A stretch of 28,533 nt of DNA, from IMG/VR virus record IMGVR_UViG_2565956714_000005. One strand, written 5' to 3'. A model generated the notes under the pieces. The model was given only the letters and a program-made list of their open reading frames with translations, had not been told where the DNA came from and did not search any database. Source of the stretch: a virus (lineage: Duplodnaviria > Heunggongvirae > Uroviricota > Caudoviricetes). A program made the position numbers and the translations under genes. Below, one piece after another: positions 1-28,533 of the stretch; position 1 is the first letter of the stretch; every line of letters begins with the position of its first letter.

Positions 1-159
1 AATGCGGCTGTTTTCTGCCGCAACCGCTGCGGTGATCTGCGCGTTCACGTCCGGCTGCGCCGCGCTGGCGTTTTCGCCCTCCGTCGCTGGCACCACGTCA
101 GTAACGTCAGCCTGCGAAGCAGTGGCTGAAACAGTTGTTGATTGAGTCTCTTTGGTCAT
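1..159 (-). CDS. Nu3: Capsid scaffolding protein Nu3, N-terminal part; in-frame internal start within C
   Basis: ATG at 159-157 preceded by GGAGGG; translation MTKETQSTTVSATASQADVTDVVPATEGENASAAQPDVNAQITAAVAAENSRI... in the same frame as C, as in lambda. Confidence 0.6.
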   Translation of the reverse strand, partial: MTKETQSTTVSATASQADVTDVVPATEGENASAAQPDVNAQITAAVAAENSRI

Positions 160-1063
160 TCGCCCTCCTGAGAGACGGGATTTACGTGCATCCAGTGCAT
201 CACGCATGACGGTGATCGCATCGGTGCTGTTAACAAGTTCATCAGCCAGTCCGGCATCAATGGCCTCCTGACCGCTGTACACTGCAGCCTCGGTATCCAG
301 CACAGCCTGCACGGACAGGCCGGTATATGCCGACACCTTCTGCGCAAACATCTGGCGGGTTGCGTCCATCCGGTACTGCAGTGTCTCCCGGACGTCATCC
401 GGAAGATGGCTGTAGGGGTTGCCATCCACCTTATGGCTGCCGCTGTAAATCAGCGTGATTTCCACACCCTGTTTCTCCAGCGCAGCACCGTAATTACTGT
501 GAGCCATCATGACGCCGATGGAGCCTGTCCGGGCGGTCTGCGTGACCAGACGCCGGGAGGCGGCACTGGCAAGCAACTGACCTGCACTGCAGTTCATGTC
601 GTTGGCAAGCGCCCATACCGGTTTTATGTCACGCACACGGGCGATGATGTCAGCGCAGTCAAATGCCCCCGCCACCATCCCGCCGGGCGTGTCCATATCG
701 AGCAGAATGCCGTCCACCATCGGATCGCTGGCAGCCTGTTGCAGACGGGCGATAATGCCGTTGTAACCGGTCATCCCCGAGTACGGCTGCAGCGCCCGCG
801 TCCGGCTGACCAGCGTGCCGGACACCGGCAGCACGGCGATGCCGTTCATGACCTGATAACTGCGGGCCTGTCGTGGTCCGTCATCATCACCGGATAATGC
901 CAGCGTCGCGAGTGCCTCCTGGGCAGTCAGGCTGTCGCCGGACACCGCATCCGTCAGGCGGCTGATCCCAAGCTGGCCTGCAAGCGCACAAAAGAAAACC
1001 CGCGCATAGGCGGGTTCAAGCATCAGCGGCTCATTAAAGGCCATGCTGGCAATATGCGGGAGA

Positions 1064-1083
<20 letters not shown>
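1..1083 (-). CDS. C: Lambda-type head protein C (minor capsid protein / prohead protease), first 361 codons only; gene runs off the window start
   Basis: GTG at 1083-1081 lies 19 nt inside the 3' end of B, as in lambda. The minus-strand frame is open to position 1 and translates to ...AFDCADIIARVRDIKPVWALANDMNCSAGQLLASAASRRLVTQTARTGSIGVMMAHSNYGAALEKQGVEITLIYSGSHKVDGNPY..., recognised as lambda gpC. Absent from the ORF track because it is partial. Confidence 0.85.
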
Positions 1084-4764
<3,681 letters not shown>

Positions 4765-4790
<26 letters not shown>

Positions 4791-5310
4791 TCAGCAACCC
4801 CGGTATCAGTTCATCCAGCGCGGCTGCTTTGTTCATGGCTTTGATGATATCCCGTTTCAGGAAATCAACATGTCGGTTTTCCAGTTCCGGAAAACGCCGC
4901 TGCACCGACAGGGGGATCCCGTCGAGAATACTGGCAATTTCACCTGCGATCCGCGACAGCACGAAAGTACAGAATGCGGTTTCCACCACTTCAGCGGAGT
5001 CTCTGGCATTTTTCAGCTCCTGTGCGTCGGCCTGCGCACGCGTAAGTCGATGGCGTTCGTACTCAATATTCCCTGGCTGGAGATCTGTCTCGCTGGCCTG
5101 CCGCAGTTCTTCAACTTCCCGGCGCAGCTTTTCGTTCTCAATTTCAGCATCCCTTTCGGCATACCATCTTATAACGGCGGCAGAGTCATAAAGCACCTCA
5201 TTACCCTTGCCACCGCCTCGCAGAACGGGCATTCCCTGTTCCTGCCAGTTCTGAATGGTACGGATACTCGCACCGAAAATGTCAGCCAGCTGCTTTTTGT
5301 TGACTTCCAT
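4765..5310 (-). CDS. Nu1: Terminase small subunit (lambda Nu1), 181 aa
   Basis: ORF track 181 aa MEVNKKQLADIFGASIRTIQNWQEQGMPVLRGGGKGNEVLYDSAAV...; full length, whereas the K-12 Qin homologue nohA sits beside a deleted head region. Confidence 0.95.
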
Positions 5311-6350: not shown

Positions 6351-6501
6351 TTTGTCGCTCCATTCGTTTGCTCTTCACTTGCGGCTAAAAATATAACGTC
6401 AAATCACTCAGTAGACTGCCCCCTGAATCTCCAGACAACCAATATCACTTAAATAAGTGATAGTCTTAATACTAGTTTTTAGACTAGTCATTGGAGAGCA
6501 G

Positions 6502-6867
6502 ATGATTGATGTCTTAGGACCGGAGAAACGCAGACGGCGTACTACACAGGAAAAGATCGCTATTGTTCAGCAGAGTTTTGAACCGGGAATGACAGTCTCC
6601 CTTGTTGCCCGGCAACACGGTGTGGCAGCCAGCCAGTTATTTCTCTGGCGCAAGCAATACCAGGAGGGAAGTCTTACTGCTGTGGCCGCAGGAGAACAGG
6701 TCGTTCCTGCCTCTGAACTTGCTGCCGCCATGAAGCAGATTAAAGAACTCCAGCGCCTGCTCGGCAAAAAAACGATGGAAAATGAACTCCTTAAAGAAGC
6801 CGTTGAATACGGGCGTGCAAAAAAGTGGATAGCGCACGCGCCCTTATTGCCCGGGGATGGGGAGTAA
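6502..6867 (+). CDS. insC: IS2 transposase OrfA (InsC)
   Basis: [56 protein letters not shown]...; the ORF track's upstream extension to 6457 uses a non-ATG start. Confidence 0.9.
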
Positions 6868-7730
6868 GCTTAGTCAGCCGTTGTCTCCGGGTGTCGCGTG
6901 CGCAGTTGCACGTAATTCTCAGACGAACCGATGACTGGAAAGATGGTCGCCGCAGCCGTCACTCAGATGATACGGATGTGCTTCTCCGTATACACCATGT
7001 TATCGGAGAGCTGCCCACGTATGGTTATCGTCGGGTATGGGCGCTGCTTCGCAGACAGGCCGAACTTGATGGTATGCCTGCGATCAATGCCAAACGTGTT
7101 TACCGGATCATGCGCCAGAATGCGCTGTTGCTTGAGCGAAAAACCGCTGTACCGCCATCGAAACGGGCACATACTGGCAAAGTGGCCGTGAAAGAAAGCA
7201 ATCAACGATGGTGCTCTGACGGGTTCGAGTTCCGCTGTGATAACGGAGAAAAACTGCGAGTCACGTTCGCGCTGGACTGCTGTGACCGTGAGGCACTGCA
7301 CTGGGCAGTCACTACGGGCGGCTTCGACAGTGAAACAGTACAGGACGTCATGCTGGGAGCGGTGGAACGCCGCTTCGGCAACGAGCTTCCGGCGTCTCCA
7401 GTAGAGTGGCTGACGGATAATGGTTCATGCTACCGGGCTAATGAAACGCGGCAGTTTGCCCGGATGTTGGGGCTTGAACCGAAGAACACGGCGGTGCGGA
7501 GTCCGGAGAGTAACGGCATAGCAGAGAGCTTCGTGAAAACGATAAAGCGTGACTACATCAGTATCATGCCTAAACCAGACGGGTTAACGGCAGCAAAGAA
7601 CCTTGCAGAGGCGTTCGAGCATTATAACGAATGGCATCCGCATAGTGCACTGGGTTATCGCTCGCCACGGGAATATCTGCGGCAGCAGGCCAGTAATGGA
7701 TTAAGTGATAACAGGTGTCTGGAAATATAG
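6825..7730 (+). CDS. insD: IS2 transposase OrfB (InsD), DDE integrase-type catalytic domain; expressed by -1 frameshift from insC
   Basis: ORF track 301 aa ...[41 protein letters not shown]...[11 protein letters not shown]...; GTG at 6825 overlaps the AAAAAAG slippery site. Confidence 0.9.
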
Positions 7731-7984: not shown

Positions 7985-9179
<1,195 letters not shown>

Positions 9180-9821: not shown

Positions 9822-10026
9822 TCATTTTCACTTTCTTAAATCTAACGACAGATGGCTAACATTTAAGTATTGTGAAATATTATCAAATGTAATCATCATT
9901 GATTTACAAAAGATACATTTTGCCCCGAAAGGATTCATGTCAGAAACATCAAAAGATGATGTTCTATACTGGGAACCATGACAACACGGGCATCTAAAGT
10001 GAATATGGTTTGTAATATTGTCTACC

Positions 10027-10239
10027 TCAAAGCGCCACTACATGAACAGCGGCAGGACCTTTAGGTCCGTTCTCAATACCAAATTCAACTTCCTGATTCT
10101 CAGTTAATGTTTTGAAATCGTTGCTCTGAATTGCTGAGAAATGGACAAACACATCTTTGCTGCCATCTTTCGGCGTGATGAAACCAAAACCTTTTTCAGG
10201 GTTAAACCATTTCACTAAACCAGTCATTTTGTTAGACAT
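10027..10239 (-). CDS. cspI: Cold-shock protein, CspA family, 70 aa
   Basis: [70 protein letters not shown]; RNP1/RNP2 motifs; long 5' leader upstream, typical of csp genes. Confidence 0.9.
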
Positions 10240-10601
10240 AATTATTACCTTTTGAAGAAATTAGCCCTTGGGCAGAATGGTCCGAAAAAAAATATCAGAG
10301 AGAAAAACCAACAAGGAAATCTCAAGAGGTACAAATAATAAAATTATAACAATGACTGCTTCAGATAAATTTGTAACAAACCAGAACACCATTAACGCAT
10401 GATTAACCACCCATAGCAAGGATTACTTTTGTAAAGAAAAACACAGCAATGAAAGAATAGCTTTATTTATTAATAAAACGTGTCATTCTGATTAAGACCT
10501 TTTATCTTACCCTTAAGATTTCAGGAATTTTGGCTCATGGAAGAGTCCTTTTTATTTAAATTTTACATTCCGCGATGTAAATGTTCCGATTTAATATTAC
10601 C

Positions 10602-11625
<1,024 letters not shown>

Positions 11626-11629
<4 letters not shown>

Positions 11630-11937
11630 AGATATTTATGATGAGGACGCTCGTGCTTATTGGCAGGATTTTCAATCTTAAAGGAGTACTGATGCTGCAG
11701 ATAAGACTCAACTTTTTCTGACAATTTTTCTGCTACTTCCAGGAAGACTTGCCGGACGCTCCTTCTGGCTGCTGCCTCATAAAACTCCAGCGCAGCTCCT
11801 TCAACACGGTCCATGGCGACATCCAGGTCAAAAATTTCACCGTCAAAGCGTTCTTTGTCCTGTAAGGCTACAGTTACCGTAACTTTATTCTCAAAATTAC
11901 GGACTCCTTTCACAACCAGTTCATAGTCTTGAGTCAT
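11626..11937 (-). CDS. ydfR: YdfR-like protein (DUF1327), 103 aa, between holin and endolysin
   Basis: ORF track 103 aa MTQDYELVVKGVRNFENKVTVTVALQDKERFDGEIFDLDVAMDRVEGAALEFYEAAARRS...; length and position match K-12 Qin ydfR. Confidence 0.7.
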
Positions 11938-11941
11938 TGGA

Positions 11942-12019
11942 TTACTCTCCTCTCGCAGCCTTACGCCTGTCTTCTTTAATCTTGAAATAAAGATTTGTCA
12001 GATACGTCAGCAGGCCAAA
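11942..12019 (-). pseudogene. essQ: Holin (phage-21 S-type pinholin) C-terminal fragment, separated from its N-terminal part by IS3
   Basis: Minus-strand translation [25 protein letters not shown]-stop immediately left of the IS3 end; the first codon is the AAA/TTT target-site copy. Confidence 0.85.
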
Positions 12020-12049
12020 TGATCCTACCCACGTAATATGGACACAGGC

Positions 12050-12916
12050 CTAAGCGAGGTTCTTGTTTTCAAATTGTTCCGGACTGAGGCCGCCACACCA
12101 ACTGTGCCGCCGCCACCGATTGTAATCACATTCGATATAATTAAACACCGTTGCCCGCATTATTTCCCGGCTGATAAAGTGTTCTCCATGGATACATTCC
12201 ACTTTCAGCGAATGAAAGAAGCTTTCCACGCAGGCATTATCGTAGCAGCAACCTTTTGCGCTCATACTTCCACGCAGATTATGCCGCTTCAGTTGCGCCT
12301 GATAATCTGCTGAACAGTACTGGCCTCCACGGTCCGTGTGAACGATAACGTTCCGGGGCCTCTTACGCCGCCACAGCGCCATCTGCAGGGCATCGCAGGC
12401 CAGTTGCGCCGTCATGCGTGGCGACATTGACCAGCCAATAACGGCACGTGACCACAGGTCAATGACCACTGCCAGATACAGCCAGCCTTCATCTGTACGT
12501 AAGTACGTGATGTCTCCTGCCCACTTCTGGTTCGGGCCACTGGCGTAAAAATCCTGCTCCAACAGATTTTCTGACACAGGCAGGCCGTGTGCGCGGTAGC
12601 TGACCGGGCTGAACTTCCGGGAGGCCTTTGCCCTCAGTCCCTGACGGCGCAGGCTTGCCGCCACGGTTTTTACGTTAAAGGGGTAACCCTGAGCACGCAG
12701 TTCATCCGTCAGGCGTGGGGCACCGTAACGCTGTTTTGACCGGGTAAAAGCCGCGAGGACAACGCTGTCGCAGTGTTGGCGGAACTGCTGACGCGTGCTT
12801 ATCCTTGTCCGCCGCTGACACCACGTATACCAGCCGCTGCGGGCCACCCGGAGCACGCGGCACATTGCTTTGATGCTGAACTCAGCCTGATGTTTTTCAA
12901 TAAAGACATACTTCAT
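12050..12916 (-). CDS. insF: IS3 transposase OrfB (InsF), 288 aa, DDE domain
   Basis: ORF track [57 protein letters not shown]... recognised as IS3 InsF. Confidence 0.9.
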
Positions 12917-13212
12917 TTCAGGCGCTTCGCGAAGTATGTCGCGGCCTTTTGGAGGATAGCCAGCTCTTCATCCCGTTCTGCCAGCTGGCGTTTGAGACGT
13001 GCAATCTCGGTAGACATCTCCAGTTCACGTTCAGAAGACGTCTGCTGATTTTGCTGTTTACTGCGCCAGTTGTAGAGTTGTGATTCATACAGGCTGAGTT
13101 CACGGGCTGCGGCAGTAACACCGATGCGTTCAGCAAGCTTCAGGGCTTCACTGCGAAATTCAGGCGAATGCTGTTTACGGGGTTTTTTACTGGTTGATAC
13201 TGTTTTTGTCAT
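12913..13212 (-). CDS. insE: IS3 transposase OrfA (InsE), 99 aa
   Basis: [54 protein letters not shown]...; start taken at the Met of MTKTV. Confidence 0.85.
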
Positions 13213-13277
13213 GTGAGTCACCTCTGACTGAGAGTTTACTCACTTAGCCGCGTGTCCACTATTGCTGGGTAAGATCA

Positions 13278-13418
13278 AAAAACCAGGCTACCCAGCACAC
13301 CGATTGCAGCCCACTGTGACGGAGTTACTTTATCGAGTAACTGCAATGCCCAGAAACCAGCATTACCCGCCGATGTGCCATAGGCAACACCTGTTGTTAA
13401 CTTATCCATTGATTTCAT
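13278..13418 (-). pseudogene. essQ: Holin (phage-21 S-type pinholin) N-terminal fragment with dual-start motif MKSMDKL; reading frame runs into the IS3 end, where a TGA stop is supplied by the IS
   Basis: [47 protein letters not shown] then stop from IS3 terminal TCA; strong SD GGTGAGGA; joined with the C-terminal fragment gives a 71-aa holin. Confidence 0.85.
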
Positions 13419-13637
13419 ATCCTCACCCCGATGTACACGGATGGTGCAATATGTTTGAAAAGATCGGAGTCTACGGGGTAGTTTTGACAGCACACGTTGT
13501 TCTCAACGGCGCTAAAAAAACATACACATTAAAAATGTGGGTAATTATTTTGAAAGAAAGTCATATATAAAATAATAATACGAGAAATGTTTTCATATTT
13601 AGTGTACTGTATACGGCCATTTATACAGGAAAAGCCT

Positions 13638-13890: not shown

Positions 13891-14171
13891 GAGATTGTGG
13901 TGCTTTTTGTGGGAGTCATCCACTTACGCACTTTGTTTTGCCATGCCAGCAGTTAGCTTCTGCTGTAAAACTATTCATGCAGCAAACCTGCACTTCACCA
14001 CAATGGTTAGCATACTTTTCCTGATTAAGATTTTGCCAAATATGCTAGCCATTGTTTCATGTATTGGACCTCCTTACTTTTTATTAAAGAGATCCAATAT
14101 TCACTACTCTGTCCGTATCTCTACTCAGGCATCAGCCTTCTTCGTTATCGTATACAGACGAGCGATGAATT

Positions 14172-14387
14172 TTAATCAGTAATGATGACATTTGCTGCTG
14201 CAGGACCTTTAGCACCACTCTCTATAGAGAAGGTAACCTTTTGACCTTCAAATAAGGTTCGATAATTATCATTCTGAATCGCAGAAAAATGCACAAACAC
14301 ATCTTTACTACCATCAACAGGAGAAATAAAGCCGAAACCTTTATCAGCGTTAAACCATTTTACTAAACCAGTCATTTTATTTGACAT
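14172..14387 (-). CDS. cspB: Cold-shock protein, CspA family, 71 aa
   Basis: [71 protein letters not shown]. Confidence 0.9.
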
Positions 14388-14687
14388 TCTACATTCCTTA
14401 ACTTGAGCCTTTCGGCATAAATGGTTTGCATAACAGAAACGACTTCGTACTTAATTGGAGAGACTCAAAGAAGGAATAAGTGAATAACACCTGAAATGAG
14501 AACTGCTTTAGTAAACTACTTCGTATATCGTCTGTTCTTCAAACCGACGCAATCATTAACGCATAGTTGAACATATGAAGCAATGTTTATTTTAGACATC
14601 CAGCCATCTTCAACCCCATCAAAAAACTATAGCTTTCTTCAGGAACGTGTGTATAGTGCGCCAAGTTATCAGTATTAAGGAATTTTT

Positions 14688-15321: not shown

Positions 15322-16074
15322 TTATCTCGTCACCTTCCTCAATTGCGCTTCCGCGTATGCTTCTTCCTGCCAGCACTTTGTTACCAGTTTACCAATGACG
15401 TCCGCATACCCCTTATACCACTGATAATCGGTCAGGTCTGGTACCAGCTTCTGGACATGACGTCGTGCCAGCGTGGTCGGTAAACGACTAAACCGGTTTC
15501 CATTACAACGCCCACAAATCTTATATACCGGTACGCCATGAAACCGGGTTCTTTTTTCATCCAGAACAATCCCTTTACCCTTACACCCTCTGCACGCTGT
15601 GCTGGCTTCGCCCTTACCATGGCAATGCTGACATAGTTCCTTCACCCATTCTTCCTTGATTACAGATTCCCCGCGTCTGTAGTGTTTCACCACTTCGCGC
15701 AATACATTATAAAATCCCGTACCTGAACAATGCTCACAGCGAGCCTTACTTGCCGCAGACCTGGAGTAATCAGCAAAGGCAAAACTCACGAGGTAAGGAA
15801 TAATCTGTAACCGGATTTCTTCACTCAATTTGTTCAATGTCGGGTTATCCAGTGCCATCGCGTAATTTAGCAGGCCTTCAATCGCAAACTGAGGGTCCTG
15901 AACACCAACTTTTGCCAGAAATAAGGCCAACCCAAGTGGTGCTTTCGACTGCACCATCCCCTGCGCTGCCATTACATCCGTAATTGTTAAACAACCGGTG
16001 CCTGTCGCTGGAGCGTCATCGCTCAATTTTGGAGATTTTGGGGAGTAATATTTTGGTAAGGCTTCAAGGTTCAT
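15322..16074 (-). CDS. quuQ: Late-gene antitermination protein Q, 250 aa
   Basis: Cys/His-rich protein (...CEHCSGTGFYN...CQHCHGKGEASTACRGCKGKGIVLDEKRTRFHG...CGRCNGN...) in the Q position; start taken at the ATG of MNLEALPKYY with GGAG SD; the track's longer form starts at TTG. Confidence 0.85.
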   Translation of the reverse strand: MNLEALPKYYSPKSPKLSDDAPATGTGCLTITDVMAAQGMVQSKAPLGLALFLAKVGVQDPQFAIEGLLNYAMALDNPTLNKLSEEIRLQIIPYLVSFAFADYSRSAASKARCEHCSGTGFYNVLREVVKHYRRGESVIKEEWVKELCQHCHGKGEASTACRGCKGKGIVLDEKRTRFHGVPVYKICGRCNGNRFSRLPTTLARRHVQKLVPDLTDYQWYKGYADVIGKLVTKCWQEEAYAEAQLRKVTR

Positions 16075-17951: not shown

Positions 17952-18107
17952 TTACTCCTCAGGTTCGTAAGCTGTGAAGACAGCGACCTCCGTCTGGCCG
18001 GTTCGGATTCGTACCTCGCAGAGGTCTTTCCTCGTTACCAGTGCCGTCACTATGACGGTTAAACAGATGACGATCAGGGCGATTAACATCGCCTTTTGCT
18101 GCTTCAT
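17952..18107 (-). CDS. hokD: Hok-family type I toxin (membrane-depolarising peptide), 51 aa
   Basis: MKQQKAMLIALIVICLTVIVTALVTRKDLCEVRIRTGQTEVAVFTAYEPEE; SD AAGGAGAAG; the track ORF extends in frame upstream to 18164. Confidence 0.85.
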   Translation of the reverse strand: MKQQKAMLIALIVICLTVIVTALVTRKDLCEVRIRTGQTEVAVFTAYEPEE

Positions 18108-18365
18108 AGCCTGCTTCTCCTTGCCTTTCGGCACGTAAGAGGCTAACCTACATGTGTCTAGCATGAAATTGGCCTCAGATTAATGTTAAGCGTCTTGCAG
18201 GACGCGTAATGTTAACTGGGGCTTTTCTCTATCTGCCGTTGGTGTCCATGCCCGAGGCAGATAGCCTCAAGCACCCGCAGTCATTCTACTTAACTAAGAT
18301 TTCCCCGCAAACCGTTTTTGTCCAGCACAGTAAATATCCAACTAAACCAATGGAGTTCGCTGTAT

Positions 18366-18545
18366 TTACCGCCAGTATTCAATGCACATGACCGCCATGA
18401 ACACCCCTAAAAAAAGGGCATTTATATATCCAAATATTAATATCAAAACATCAACTTTTTCCATATACCTTGCTGTGAAGATGATGGGCATACATGATGC
18501 GAACAACCAGAACGCAACAAACAAAAACTGCAATGCGTTTTTCAT
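18366..18545 (-). CDS. Small hydrophobic membrane protein, 59 aa, two predicted TM helices
   Basis: MKNALQFLFVAFWLFASCMPIIFTARYMEKVDVLILIFGYINALFLGVFMAVMCIEYWR; strong SD AGGAGGA 5 nt upstream of this ATG. Confidence 0.5.
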   Translation of the reverse strand: MKNALQFLFVAFWLFASCMPIIFTARYMEKVDVLILIFGYINALFLGVFMAVMCIEYWR

Positions 18546-18799
18546 TATTCCTCCTACAATCAATGTGCAATTACATTTAAACACACCTCAATTTGGCCGG
18601 ACATATAAATATCTAAACCAGAAAAAATCACTTACATAGCGTTACAAACTCTTTAGTCTAAAGGTTCATCGTAAAACATTCCCCATACTTATCAGTCCGT
18701 TCCGCGCCAGGTAGCTCATTGCCTTATCTGGCAACCTGTAATCAGGTTTCCGCTTTTTCAGTTGGCTGGTCGTTTAACCGACATAGTTAATCCATTAAT

Positions 18800-23953: not shown

Positions 23954-24142
23954 ATGAAAACGTTATTACCAAACGTTAATACGTCTGAAGGTTGTTTTGA
24001 AATTGGTGTCACTATCAGTAACCCAGTATTTACTGAAGATGCCATTAACAAGAGAAAACAAGAACGGGAGCTATTAAATAAAATATGCATTGTTTCAATG
24101 CTGGCTCGTTTACGTCTGATGCCAAAAGGATGTGCACAATGA
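23954..24142 (+). CDS. dicB: Cell-division inhibitor DicB (MinC-dependent), 62 aa
   Basis: MKTLLPNVNTSEGCFEIGVTISNPVFTEDAINKRKQERELLNKICIVSMLARLRLMPKGCAQ; the track's longer form starts at GTG. Confidence 0.88.
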   Translation: MKTLLPNVNTSEGCFEIGVTISNPVFTEDAINKRKQERELLNKICIVSMLARLRLMPKGCAQ

Positions 24143-24330
24143 ATTCAGCATTTGTGCTTGTTCTGACAGTTTTTCTTGTTTCCGGAGAGCCAGTTGATAT
24201 TGCAGTCAGTGTTCACAGGACAATGCAGGAGTGTATGACTGCAGCAACCGAACAGAAAATTCCCGGTAACTGTTACCCGGTCGATAAAGTTATTCACCAG
24301 GATAATATCGAAATCCCGGCAGGTCTTTAA
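24139..24330 (+). CDS. ydfD: YdfD-like small membrane/lysis protein, 63 aa
   Basis: MNSAFVLVLTVFLVSGEPVDIAVSVHRTMQECMTAATEQKIPGNCYPVDKVIHQDNIEIPAGL; ATGA overlap with the dicB stop. Confidence 0.8.
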   Translation: MNSAFVLVLTVFLVSGEPVDIAVSVHRTMQECMTAATEQKIPGNCYPVDKVIHQDNIEIPAGL

Positions 24331-27237: not shown

Positions 27238-28533
27238 ATGAGAGAAGTTGAAATGAAATATCCGACAGGCGTGGAAAACCATGGAGGGAAATTACGTATC
27301 TGGTTTGTTTATAAAGACGTAAGAGTCAGGGAAAATCTGGGGGTTCCTGACACAGCAAAAAACAGGCGCGTTGCAGGTGAACTACGCTCCTCTGTTTGTT
27401 ACGCAATAAAAACTGGTGTTTTCGACTATGCAAAACAGTTTCCCTCCTCACGCAATCTGGAAAAATTTGGTGAGGCCCGACAAGATTTAACCATAAAAGA
27501 ACTGGCTGAAAAATTTCTGGCACTGAAAGAAACTGAAGTCGCCAAAACATCACTCAACACATACCGTGCCGTCATCAAAAATATCCTGAGCATAATCGGT
27601 GAAAAAAATCTTGCCTCATCGATTAATAAAGAAAAATTACTGGAGGTTCGTAAAGAGCTACTGACTGGATACCAGATCCCCAAAAGTAACTATATTGTTA
27701 CACAACCAGGGAGATCGGCTGTAACTGTAAATAATTACATGACAAATCTTAACGCCGTGTTCCAGTTTGGTGTTGATAACGGTTACCTGCCAGATAATCC
27801 GTTTAAGGGGATCTCGCCATTAAAGGAATCAAGAACCATTCCGGATCCTCTTTCGCGGGAGGAATTTATCCGTCTTATCGATGCGTGCAGAAATCAGCAA
27901 GCAAAAAATTTATGGTGTGTTTCTGTTTATACTGGCGTTCGCCCTGGTGAGCTGTGTGCACTTGGATGGGAGGACATAGATCTGAAAAATGGAACAATGA
28001 TGATCAGGAGAAATTTAGCAAAAGACCGTTTCACGGTACCAAAAACACAGGCGGGAACCAATCGGGTCATTCATCTTATTAAGCCAGCAATCGACGCTCT
28101 CCGGAGTCAGATGACATTAACGAGACTGAGCAAAGAGCATATCATTGATGTTCACCTCAGAGAGTATGGCAGAACAGAAAAACAAAAATGCACCTTTGTT
28201 TTTCAACCTGAAGTGTCAGCGAGAGTAAAAAATTATGGTGACCATTTTACCGTTGACTCAATAAGGCAGATGTGGGACGCAGCGATAAAACGTGCCGGAC
28301 TCCGCCATCGAAAATCATATCAGTCGAGACATACTTATGCCTGCTGGTCGCTGACAGCTGGTGCTAACCCGGCATTTATAGCAAACCAGATGGGCCATGC
28401 AGATGCGCAAATGGTATTTCAGGTATACGGAAAATGGATGTCTGAAAACAATAATGCACAGGTAGCTTTGTTAAATACACAGTTAAGCGAGTTTGCCCCA
28501 ACCATGTCCCATAACGAAGCAATGAAAAATTAA
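27238..28533 (+). CDS. intQ: Tyrosine site-specific integrase (lambda Int family), 431 aa; stop codon is the last 3 bases of the window
   Basis: N-terminal arm-binding-like region (MKYPTGVENHGGKLRIWFVYKD...) and C-terminal catalytic region ...HRKSYQSRHTYACWSLTAGANPAFIANQMGHADAQMVFQVYGKW... with the conserved R/H/R/Y elements. Confidence 0.9.
   Translation: MREVEMKYPTGVENHGGKLRIWFVYKDVRVRENLGVPDTAKNRRVAGELRSSVCYAIKTGVFDYAKQFPSSRNLEKFGEARQDLTIKELAEKFLALKETEVAKTSLNTYRAVIKNILSIIGEKNLASSINKEKLLEVRKELLTGYQIPKSNYIVTQPGRSAVTVNNYMTNLNAVFQFGVDNGYLPDNPFKGISPLKESRTIPDPLSREEFIRLIDACRNQQAKNLWCVSVYTGVRPGELCALGWEDIDLKNGTMMIRRNLAKDRFTVPKTQAGTNRVIHLIKPAIDALRSQMTLTRLSKEHIIDVHLREYGRTEKQKCTFVFQPEVSARVKNYGDHFTVDSIRQMWDAAIKRAGLRHRKSYQSRHTYACWSLTAGANPAFIANQMGHADAQMVFQVYGKWMSENNNAQVALLNTQLSEFAPTMSHNEAMKN

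Follow-up and report, generated by a model that had tools for sequence, protein, structure and literature searches.

A copy of the insertion sequence IS3 splits the pinholin gene in the lysis cassette of the prophage studied here. We put the probability at roughly 85% that this allele arose by a single recent transposition, private to the strain, into an essQ-type pinholin/antipinholin gene, and that the genes downstream are intact because too little time has passed for them to decay rather than because selection has maintained them. The window, by which we mean the whole stretch of 28,533 nucleotides that was analysed, holds the element and the two gene fragments in the following arrangement.

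13420-13427, minus strand: Shine-Dalgarno-like motif GGTGAGGA, read from the sequence, upstream of the dual start
13278-13418, minus strand: N-terminal fragment of the pinholin gene (essQ / S21-type), codons 1-47, encoding TMD1 and the first half of TMD2 behind a Met1/Met4 dual start
13278-13280: right copy of the target-site duplication AAA, seen on inspection of the sequence
12020-13277, minus strand: IS3, its IRL end lying at 13277 and its IRR end at 12020
13221-12913, minus strand: IS3 orfA, intact, with an HTH_Tnp_1 domain (PF01527)
12916-12050, minus strand: IS3 orfB, intact, with an rve domain (PF00665, E = 5e-28)
12017-12019: left copy of the target-site duplication AAA, where alignment to the intact L001 allele overlaps by exactly 3 bp
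11942-12016, minus strand: C-terminal fragment of the pinholin gene, codons 48-71 plus stop, encoding the rest of TMD2 and the charged tail

Inspection of the window sequence places an element of exactly 1258 bp within the pinholin gene. Its terminal inverted repeats are imperfect (TGATCCTACCCA... and TGATCTTACCCA..., with 25 of the first 45 positions matching), its ends are the conserved TGATC..TACCCA, and an A4G motif for -1 frameshifting (AAAAG, at IS3 position 327) lies just 5′ of the overlap between orfA and orfB. Seven other genomes carry IS3 copies that match this one at 100% identity over 1258 bp, and identity is 99.7-100% over the same length to 18 copies annotated in RefSeq as 'IS3-like element IS3 family transposase'. 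Length, ends, reading frames, frameshift site, target duplication and near-identity all place the element in IS3 proper (IS3 family, IS3 group), and its length, repeats and flanks bear out the coordinates and the 3-bp AAA duplication given in an earlier note on this DNA. The transposase genes run in the same direction as the lysis genes, and IRR faces ydfR at a distance of 83 bp.

When the element and one AAA are deleted in silico, a reading frame of 71 residues (47 + 24) is restored. This frame matches the Pfam family PF04971, 'Bacteriophage P21 holin S' (E = 4.4e-34; positions 1-63 of the 64-position profile), as well as holin PHROGs, which supports the earlier description of a phage-21 S-type holin split after codon 47. 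The reconstructed protein has the architecture of a pinholin, with a weak, SAR-like TMD1, a hydrophobic TMD2, an MKSM dual start and a basic C-terminal tail; its 19-residue hydropathy peaks are 0.70 (residues 10-28) and 1.72 (residues 36-54). Pinholins of this type, which are class II holins, depolarise the membrane through small heptameric holes. The break after residue 47 lies within the second peak and bisects TMD2, so the allele should be a pinholin null, and in place of an intact reading frame that would make the hole-forming TMD2 the window carries a disrupted PF04971 member, that is, a pseudogene. An amber allele of S68 at V43 is listed in a published study, and the window fragment is just two residues longer in the numbering of our own alignment.

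The N-terminal fragment ends at a TGA (13277-13275) that comes from the end of IS3 and directly follows codon 47. It retains the dual-start MKSMDKL motif, with both Met1 and Met4 present. The Shine-Dalgarno sequence, previously described as strong, is good as a motif, but only 1 nt separates it from Met1, against 10 nt from Met4, a spacing that favours Met4. Translation of the C-terminal fragment was considered and rejected: although the fragment is in frame with orfB, a stop codon lies between the two and there is no ATG, GTG or TTG start.

The remainder of the lysis cassette, and the other prophage features that bear on its interpretation, are as follows.

10602-11099, minus strand: Rz-like i-spanin (DUF2514), intact, with an N-terminal TMD; phrog_312 Rz-like spanin, E = 4e-57
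10652-10906, minus strand: Rz1-like o-spanin (RzoQ-like, 84 aa), intact, in the +1 frame inside Rz, with lipobox LTSC; phrog_11621 Rz-like spanin
11096-11629, minus strand: SAR-type GH24 endolysin (RrrQ-like), 177 aa, intact; lysozyme PF00959
11626-11937, minus strand: ydfR (DUF1327), intact; PF07041, E = 1e-53
15322-16074, minus strand: Q-type late antiterminator (ydfT/quuQ-like), encoded upstream of the lysis cassette; phrog_127, E = 3e-105, and annotation of a near-identical locus
17952-18276, minus strand: hokD toxin gene and sok antisense RNA region; phrog_251 host killing, and Rfam sok at 114 bits
23728-23779, plus strand: DicF sRNA
23954-24142, plus strand: dicB; DicB phrog_1251
24139-24330, plus strand: ydfD; YdfD phrog_1092 and DUF1482

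Reading frames and profile matches thus agree with the earlier note that the YdfR-like gene, the SAR-type endolysin and Rz/Rz1 are uninterrupted, and PHROG matches likewise agree with it that the prophage encodes Hok and DicB/YdfD. The ribosome-binding site of ydfR, AGGAG, falls inside the 3′ end of the holin gene. In the endolysin, the translation reveals the catalytic triad E35-X8-D44-X5-T50 and a weak, Ala/Gly-rich N-terminal TMD (residues 9-27, hydropathy 1.67) that has the character of a SAR domain at the level of sequence, and the two spanin genes have the features of an embedded two-component pair (Rz/Rz1). Terminase, portal, exonuclease, xis and int are present along with IS2, IS5 and IS3, while the tail region of the prophage falls outside the window; the prophage is a Qin/Tritos-like lambdoid one. 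Hydropathy, Pfam and PHROG screens for an intact second holin, a possibility that had been raised before, found none in the window. Two unannotated frames with two TM segments were rejected as candidates, having no Pfam or PHROG match and neither lying in a lysis context; one of the two, at 10261-10419, is inside the cspI 5′-UTR thermoregulator.

Sequence comparisons indicate that the insertion is private and recent, because its junction is absent from the collections searched, its flanks equal the K-12 allele and its IS3 equals other copies of the element. Deleting IS3 leaves an allele that matches that of K-12 strains (essQ) at 100% identity over 339 bp, and for 1,497 records the best match to it reaches at least 99% identity. 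The flanks are 99.96-100% identical to strain CUVET17-972, in which the holin is intact, and the identical 71-residue holin is encoded by the phage genomes HannyBb, Tritos and PhiR42_1; that holin and the matching S-ydfR-R-Rz order of Tritos speak for a functional ancestral allele. The holin::IS3 junctions gave no single-piece match of at least 99% identity in 5,426 complete E. coli genomes, and the junction had no match in GTDB species representatives or in metagenome contigs. Twenty genomes that seemed to share the allele were discounted, since the one inspected carries IS3 in the lysozyme gene and an intact holin, rearranged BLAST pieces having been joined. Also discounted were 18 Logan contigs with the exact 47-residue fragment, whose 3′ ends read ...GTTTTTGG, as in the intact allele, and not ...GTTTTTTGATC, and which are contig-end truncations. 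Elsewhere in the prophage, the hokD-side junction without relBE is common (2,220 genomes). With an event so recent, the intactness of the downstream genes says nothing about selection.

As in phage 21 (pinholin S68 / antipinholin S71 from S21, and endolysin R21), the reconstructed holin matches PF04971 over its full length and has Met1/Met4, a weak TMD1, a strong TMD2 and a charged tail. Alignments of the endolysin to R21 (3HDE) and to RrrD (4ZPU) run end to end, starting at residue 9, inside the SAR domain, although R21 is only a distant relative (E = 2e-16). Unlike phage 21, the window has a holin that is split by IS3 and should be non-functional, and an extra gene, ydfR/DUF1327, between S and R. 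The K-12 Qin prophage (essQ-ydfR-rrrQ-rzpQ/rzoQ) shares the gene order and the neighbours Q, cspB/cspF, ynfU, cspI, hokD, dicB and ydfD, but its essQ is uninterrupted, whereas the window prophage is much more complete (terminase, portal, exonuclease, xis and int) and carries IS2, IS5 and IS3. In Escherichia phage Tritos (OV696610) the genes follow the same layout as in the window, int-xis-exo-ydfD-dicB-DicF ... hokD ... ydfU-Q-cspB-S-ydfR-R-Rz-cspI, and ~49% of the window aligns to this phage at 84-99% identity. However, the deposited Tritos genome has no IS elements, an intact lysis cassette and one annotated holin, and its head genes differ from those of the window, as is expected of mosaic lambdoid phages.

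Insertions of the same element into such cassettes are known from other strains. The holin::IS3 allele of OW1E2 lies 8 nt from the window site in the same orientation with a clean target duplication, and holin::IS3 in F3_13_1_3 and rrrQ::IS3 in the CUVET17-972 lineage likewise combine this element and cassette with clean duplications; across the IS3-disrupted S21-type cassettes, sites and host lineages differ from those of the window, and it is mostly the endolysin that is struck rather than the holin. Altogether, 19 distinct IS3 sites in 44 of 5,426 genomes lie within ~0.7 kb of S21-type holins, event counts that are small and in which independent sites are tallied without phylogenetic correction. 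The same or nearly the same positions are reused, and about half of the other independent insertions in or near the cassettes (9/19) destroy the endolysin, with others in ydfR or Rz. Among control segments of comparable prevalence, the Q-gene segment and the ydfU segment each have one IS3 site nearby, which suggested a lysis-gene-specific enrichment of more than 10-fold. This claim was dropped, because a third control, ynfN, which lies downstream of the cassette in the cold-shock/moron region, is struck at a similar rate to the cassette (13 genomes and ~7 sites among ~2,095 copies); the excess is thus regional and not specific to lysis genes. That IS3 is commoner near the cassettes than near the two other prophage segments may reflect some selection or target bias.

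These counts bear on the alternative that loss of lysis has been selected, such that IS3 knock-outs are recurrently favoured because they stop host killing by leaky or induced late expression, and the window is one case of many. The number of sites near S21-type holins and the single sites near Q and ydfU count in favour of this alternative. However, the rate in ynfN counts against it, a knock-out of Q would also abolish late lysis and yet is rare, and the counts are small and uncorrected for phylogeny, so that we judge selected loss to be unlikely.

Under the preferred reading of a fresh, private transposition, the consequences for lysis can be outlined. The allele would make neither a working pinholin (S68-equivalent) nor a working antipinholin (S71-equivalent), and the sharply timed depolarisation that normally frees the SAR endolysin would be lost with them. 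Nevertheless, ydfR, the endolysin and Rz/Rz1 would still be transcribable, either by Q-antiterminated late transcription through IS3, which has no convincing intrinsic terminator on the lysis-gene strand, or from promoters of IS3 itself that would read in the same direction; P3L and P3R have both been reported to point in the direction of the transposase (PMC8860574). On induction of the prophage, lysis would be expected to be delayed and gradual rather than abolished, and a collapse of the proton motive force could provoke it. The earlier claim that pinholin loss should block timed lysis stands in so far as TMD2 is cut and a null is expected, and the proposal that a SAR endolysin can be released by depolarisation alone is physiologically sound, SAR endolysins being freed even without a holin, though later and less sharply. 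Phage Mu, which lyses its host with the SAR endolysin gp22, the releasin gp25 and spanins but no holin (PMC9239132), exemplifies what the window cassette would need. In Mu, however, this is an evolved arrangement with a dedicated releasin, whereas in the window cassette the holin was lost by accident, through transposition, and no releasin can be seen. Reassembly of the gene by frequent precise excision of IS3, which the earlier note had also considered, runs against a report that excision of IS3 is rare when the excision enhancer IEE is absent (PMC8860574).

The same promoters raise the possibility that IS3 has rewired the cassette, with P3R driving ydfR, the endolysin and Rz/Rz1 constitutively and uncoupled from Q, which would create a standing pool of membrane-tethered SAR endolysin. 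The orientation fits, in that IRR faces ydfR across a short interval; P3R is reported to be a strong outward promoter in the transposase direction (PMC8860574); two promoter-like hexamer pairs occur within the final 290 bp of IS3 on this strand; and ydfR keeps its own ribosome-binding site. However, the hexamer pairs are consensus matches only, and constitutive SAR endolysin is expected to be harmful through spontaneous release. Moreover, the independent insertions show no significant orientation bias, with 13 co-directional and 6 inverted (same-strand joining had biased the early searches, and a reversed-end query supplied the inverted sites). We therefore consider such rewiring to be distinctly improbable.

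The earlier note had instead seen domestication that keeps a conditional lysis capacity, whereby the host would have had the lysis timer removed while retaining lysis triggered by depolarisation, possibly coupled to Hok, DicB or YdfD. It is true that every component for holin-independent lysis is intact, that hokD/sok, dicB and ydfD are present, that SAR endolysins respond to depolarisation and that domestication has been proposed (PMC7918800) for the related cassette (essD-ybcS/rrrD-rzpD/rzoD) of DLP12, a defective lambdoid prophage with a homologous S21-type module. The DLP12 lysis module is reported to affect cell-wall turnover, biofilm formation and vesiculation (PMC7918800, PMC12287860). 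Claims of domestication there, however, rest on an intact, conserved and expressed operon together with deletion phenotypes, whereas the window holin is broken and its allele private, the holin::IS3 junction being found nowhere else in the collections searched and hence not conserved across lineages. In an allele this young, conservation of the downstream genes carries no information, and the destruction of the endolysin by so many of the other insertions is the opposite of preserving a capacity for lysis. Deletion in K-12 of the Qin genes rrrQ and essD-2, the latter for the Qin holin, had no effect on peptidoglycan or vesicles, unlike deletion of DLP12 genes (PMC12287860). Finally, phages of this type, Tritos included, carry hokD, dicB and ydfD as standard cargo; the three genes are not an addition peculiar to the strain. 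We therefore regard adaptive domestication as very improbable; no data here indicate co-option of the lysis module by the host, and the event is ordinary prophage damage. It is hardly credible that the insertion is an artefact of assembling a repeat-rich genome, with IS3 wrongly placed in the holin, even though the element is multicopy (a median of several copies per genome) and the junction is found in the window alone, because a full-length element, a perfect 3-bp duplication and exact restoration of the frame are the signature of a real transposition and not of a collapsed repeat, and comparable genuine insertions with duplications exist elsewhere, including the one in OW1E2.

Insertions of IS elements into prophage genes are routine, and the single recent transposition that we favour is a fresh example of a well-known kind of event. 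The allele could nevertheless serve as a natural pinholin null in an otherwise intact S21-type cassette, one in which to see what a Qin-type SAR endolysin does in the absence of its holin and whether the outward promoter of IS3 feeds the downstream genes. The only part of these findings that might merit a systematic, phylogeny-aware study is the uneven spread of IS3 along these prophages, with lysis genes struck repeatedly. We tentatively suggest, while considering it somewhat doubtful, that in Qin-, Rac- and DLP12-type prophages IS3 lands or persists far more often in two adjoining stretches, the late lysis cassette and the cold-shock/moron region, than in neighbouring Q and ydfU. Either a regional target preference of IS3 or recurrent selection against late prophage functions would explain such a pattern. 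If it is true, then insertion of IS3 would be one of the main ways in which E. coli disarms the lysis modules of its lambdoid prophages.

The split holin gene results from a recent and unremarkable transposition, in which IS3 knocked out the essQ-type pinholin of a Qin/Tritos-like prophage; the allele is new, although the kind of event is well known. Every coordinate assigned to it in the earlier note proved correct by sequence reading, ORFs and removal of IS3 in silico. Deletion of the element together with one AAA restores a 71-aa ORF, which matches the Pfam family 'Bacteriophage P21 holin S' nearly end to end (E = 4.4e-34) and also matches holin PHROGs.

12020-13277, minus strand, IS3 element (1258 bp, read from the sequence and ORF listing)
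13221-12913, minus strand, IS3 orfA (102 aa; transposase HTH, PF01527)
12916-12050, minus strand, IS3 orfB (288 aa, overlapping orfA; integrase core PF00665 and related domains)

AAA stands on each side of this element, whose two ends form the imperfect inverted repeats of IS3. An AAAAG slippery motif is located immediately 5′ of the orfA/orfB overlap. In other E. coli genomes, 18 annotated IS3 copies match the whole element at 99.7-100% identity.

The holin is interrupted after codon 47, where a TGA at the IS3 terminus provides an immediate stop. TMD1 is weak (hydropathy peak 0.70, residues 10-28) and TMD2 strong (peak 1.72, residues 36-54), so that the break falls within TMD2 and bisects it. 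The C-terminal 24 codons lack a start codon, and an in-frame stop separates them from orfB. The truncated product, at 47 residues, extends two residues beyond that of the V43 amber allele of S68, the phage 21 pinholin (numbering inferred from alignment, with S68 starting at Met4). This amber allele appears in the strain table of PMC9239132 and is, on our own reading, presumably a non-functional control; we infer that the IS3-split allele is null. The orfB stop (12050-12052) shares its frame with the C-terminal holin fragment (11942-12019), 10 codons upstream of it, and its read-through would join the transposase to the holin tail, with no start codon between; the shared frame is probably a coincidence. 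Frequent reversion by loss of IS3 is unlikely, because excision is rare without the excision enhancer IEE (PMC8860574).

The IS3-deleted sequence is 100% identical to K-12 derivatives over 339 bp, has a best match of at least 99% identity in 1,497 records, and occurs as a near-full-length copy in 2,112 genomes. A search of 5,426 complete E. coli genomes gave no single-piece match of at least 99% identity to either IS3 junction, and both are absent from GTDB species representatives and from the metagenome contigs searched. Because the junctions are missing from all of these collections and a strain whose holin is intact matches the flanks at 99.96-100% identity, the insertion is recent and private to the source strain. 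Two sets of apparent carriers were rejected: in 20 'full-coverage' genomes IS3 sits in the lysozyme, and 18 Logan contigs with the exact 47-aa fragment end there, reading into the intact allele.

The prophage was mapped by annotation transfer from a near-identical locus, family searches and Rfam.

1-5310, S49 peptidase, portal, head-tail joining protein, large terminase and nohA
6457-7730, IS2 (ORFs of 136 and 301 aa), moron region between gnsB and ynfO
8131-9147, IS5 (338-aa transposase), moron region between gnsB and ynfO
Next in the map, gnsB, ynfN, ymcF and cspI with thermoregulator
10000-10385, minus strand, full-length cspA-type thermoregulator 5′ UTR (Rfam RF01766) preceding cspI
10602-11099, Rz
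10652-10906, Rz1
11096-11629, 177-aa lysozyme (SAR-type endolysin)
11626-11937, ydfR/DUF1327
After the split holin and before Q, ynfU, cspB and cspF
14156-14548, minus strand, full-length cspA-type thermoregulator 5′ UTR (Rfam RF01766) preceding cspB
15322-16074, Q antiterminator
After Q, ydfU and rem
After rem, hokD/sok, then the replication and immunity region with dicC/dicA
After the dicC/dicA region, DicF, dicB and ydfD
Last, 835-aa exonuclease-domain protein, excisionase and integrase (ending at 28533)

Three different IS elements (IS2, IS5 and IS3) thus lie within 28.5 kb of prophage. The two thermoregulator UTRs flank the lysis cassette on both sides, with cold-shock morons inside the late transcription unit. 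Relative to the CUVET17-972 locus, the window lacks a 3.3-kb block beside hokD (relBE, ydfV, flxA, ydfW and an ISNCY remnant; junction at 18106-18121, block at L001 21623-24897), and likewise an IS66 element further along; the relBE-less junction is common (about 2,220 genomes). The deposited phage Tritos encodes an identical holin protein in matching gene order, with one annotated holin, and is 84-99% identical over about 49% of the window.

At sequence level, the description of the lysozyme as SAR-type is justified by its E35-X8-D44-X5-T50 triad, a weak, Ala/Gly-rich N-terminal TMD predicted by the hydropathy screen, and alignments with two structures, 3HDE (phage 21 SAR endolysin) and 4ZPU (RrrD), that run from its residue 9 to the C-terminus. 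An intact second holin, which would have undercut the proposal of the earlier note, was not found in the window by hydropathy, Pfam or PHROG searches; the tail region and the rest of the genome lie outside it. Apart from Rz, Rz1, the endolysin SAR domain, HokD and YdfD, all already known as membrane proteins, the hydropathy screen picked out ORFs that for the most part overlap with known genes or IS elements, on the opposite strand or in a different frame. It also flagged two small 2-TM ORFs, one of them within the cspI 5′-UTR thermoregulator; neither matches Pfam or PHROG, and both were rejected as holin candidates. Just upstream of hokD/sok lies a 72-aa ORF (18366-18584, minus strand) with two predicted transmembrane segments and no Pfam or PHROG match; the equivalent stretch is unannotated in a near-identical RefSeq locus.

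The remaining cassette genes should still be expressed upon induction, because the lysis strand near IS3 shows no terminator-like hit other than a weak stem of 6 pairs at the junction, Q-modified polymerase ignores terminators, ydfR retains its own AGGAG ribosome-binding site, and the IS3 promoters point towards ydfR. These promoters, P3L and the outward P3R, are both oriented with the transposase (PMC8860574), whose direction in the window is towards that gene. Even without a holin, a low rate of spontaneous escape frees SAR endolysins from the membrane, giving later and broader lysis (PMC9239132). The predicted phenotype would be a loss of timing rather than of lysis, with sensitivity to depolarisation.

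Since other strains had IS3 in the neighbouring lysozyme, we searched the 5,426 complete genomes for IS3 ends lying no more than about 0.7 kb from an S21-type holin gene and counted them; control segments (Q, ydfU and ynfN) were run with identical query design, and the place counts of the searches supplied the copy numbers.

IS3 near cassette and control segments (counts uncorrected for phylogeny)
S21-type holin: 44 genomes, 19 distinct sites, approximately 3,671 segment copies
Q gene: 3 genomes, 1 distinct site, about 2,757 segment copies
ydfU: 1 genome, 1 distinct site, about 2,388 segment copies
ynfN (downstream of the cassette): 13 genomes, about 7 sites, about 2,095 copies

Near the holins, IS3 is co-directional in 34 genomes and inverted in 8; two more carry it within the holin itself. 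In OW1E2 (L002 4069-5326), whose holin allele is about 86% identical, IS3 follows nt 133, only 8 nt away from its position after nt 141 in the window; the orientation is the same but the duplication is GAC, and the event is independent; F3_13_1_3 has an inverted IS3 near codon 14. One locus was fetched per geometry and its IS3 ends mapped, giving the 19 sites, which extend from -626 to +783 when counted from the holin ATG. Clean 3-bp duplications occur at 15 of them, and the CUVET17-972 site (L001 15068-16325) fits a 4-bp duplication. The endolysin holds nine sites, the others including ydfR, Rz and upstream positions. One endolysin site, within the SAR domain, is common to 13 genomes; around the holin, their prophage otherwise matches the window at 99.96-100% identity. 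PSJ-36 and ET82 use one endolysin position in opposite orientations. This reuse and the 8-nt spacing suggest a local target preference of IS3. Orientation is not significantly biased among the sites (13 to 6). In 19SZHZ886Rt (L017 1355-1888), whose lineage has IS3 and IS1 upstream of ynfU, the Qin-type endolysin gene rrrQ is in addition annotated as a pseudogene, broken by an internal stop; here the same cassette is decaying stepwise.

The earlier note took the split gene for domestication that keeps a conditional lysis capacity. Its physiological premises hold, but the evolutionary claim is unsupported, since a recent private insertion has left no time for decay and intact downstream genes are the null expectation. 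The hokD, dicB, ydfD and DicF genes are standard cargo for this phage type, Tritos included. Deletion of the K-12 Qin endolysin or holin left peptidoglycan labelling, peptidoglycan content and vesicle output unchanged, whereas DLP12 homologue deletions did alter labelling, content or vesicle output (PMC12287860); the DLP12 operon, unlike the split-holin cassette, is intact and conserved (PMC7918800). The IS3 counts also argue against domestication, because most of the events abolish lysis capacity. As a side observation, IS3 is unevenly distributed along these prophages in counts uncorrected for phylogeny, and the excess spans the lysis cassette and the adjoining AT-rich moron region rather than being specific to lysis genes. 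That IS3 clusters regionally, in the late part of such prophages, is the sole lead that merits systematic follow-up.
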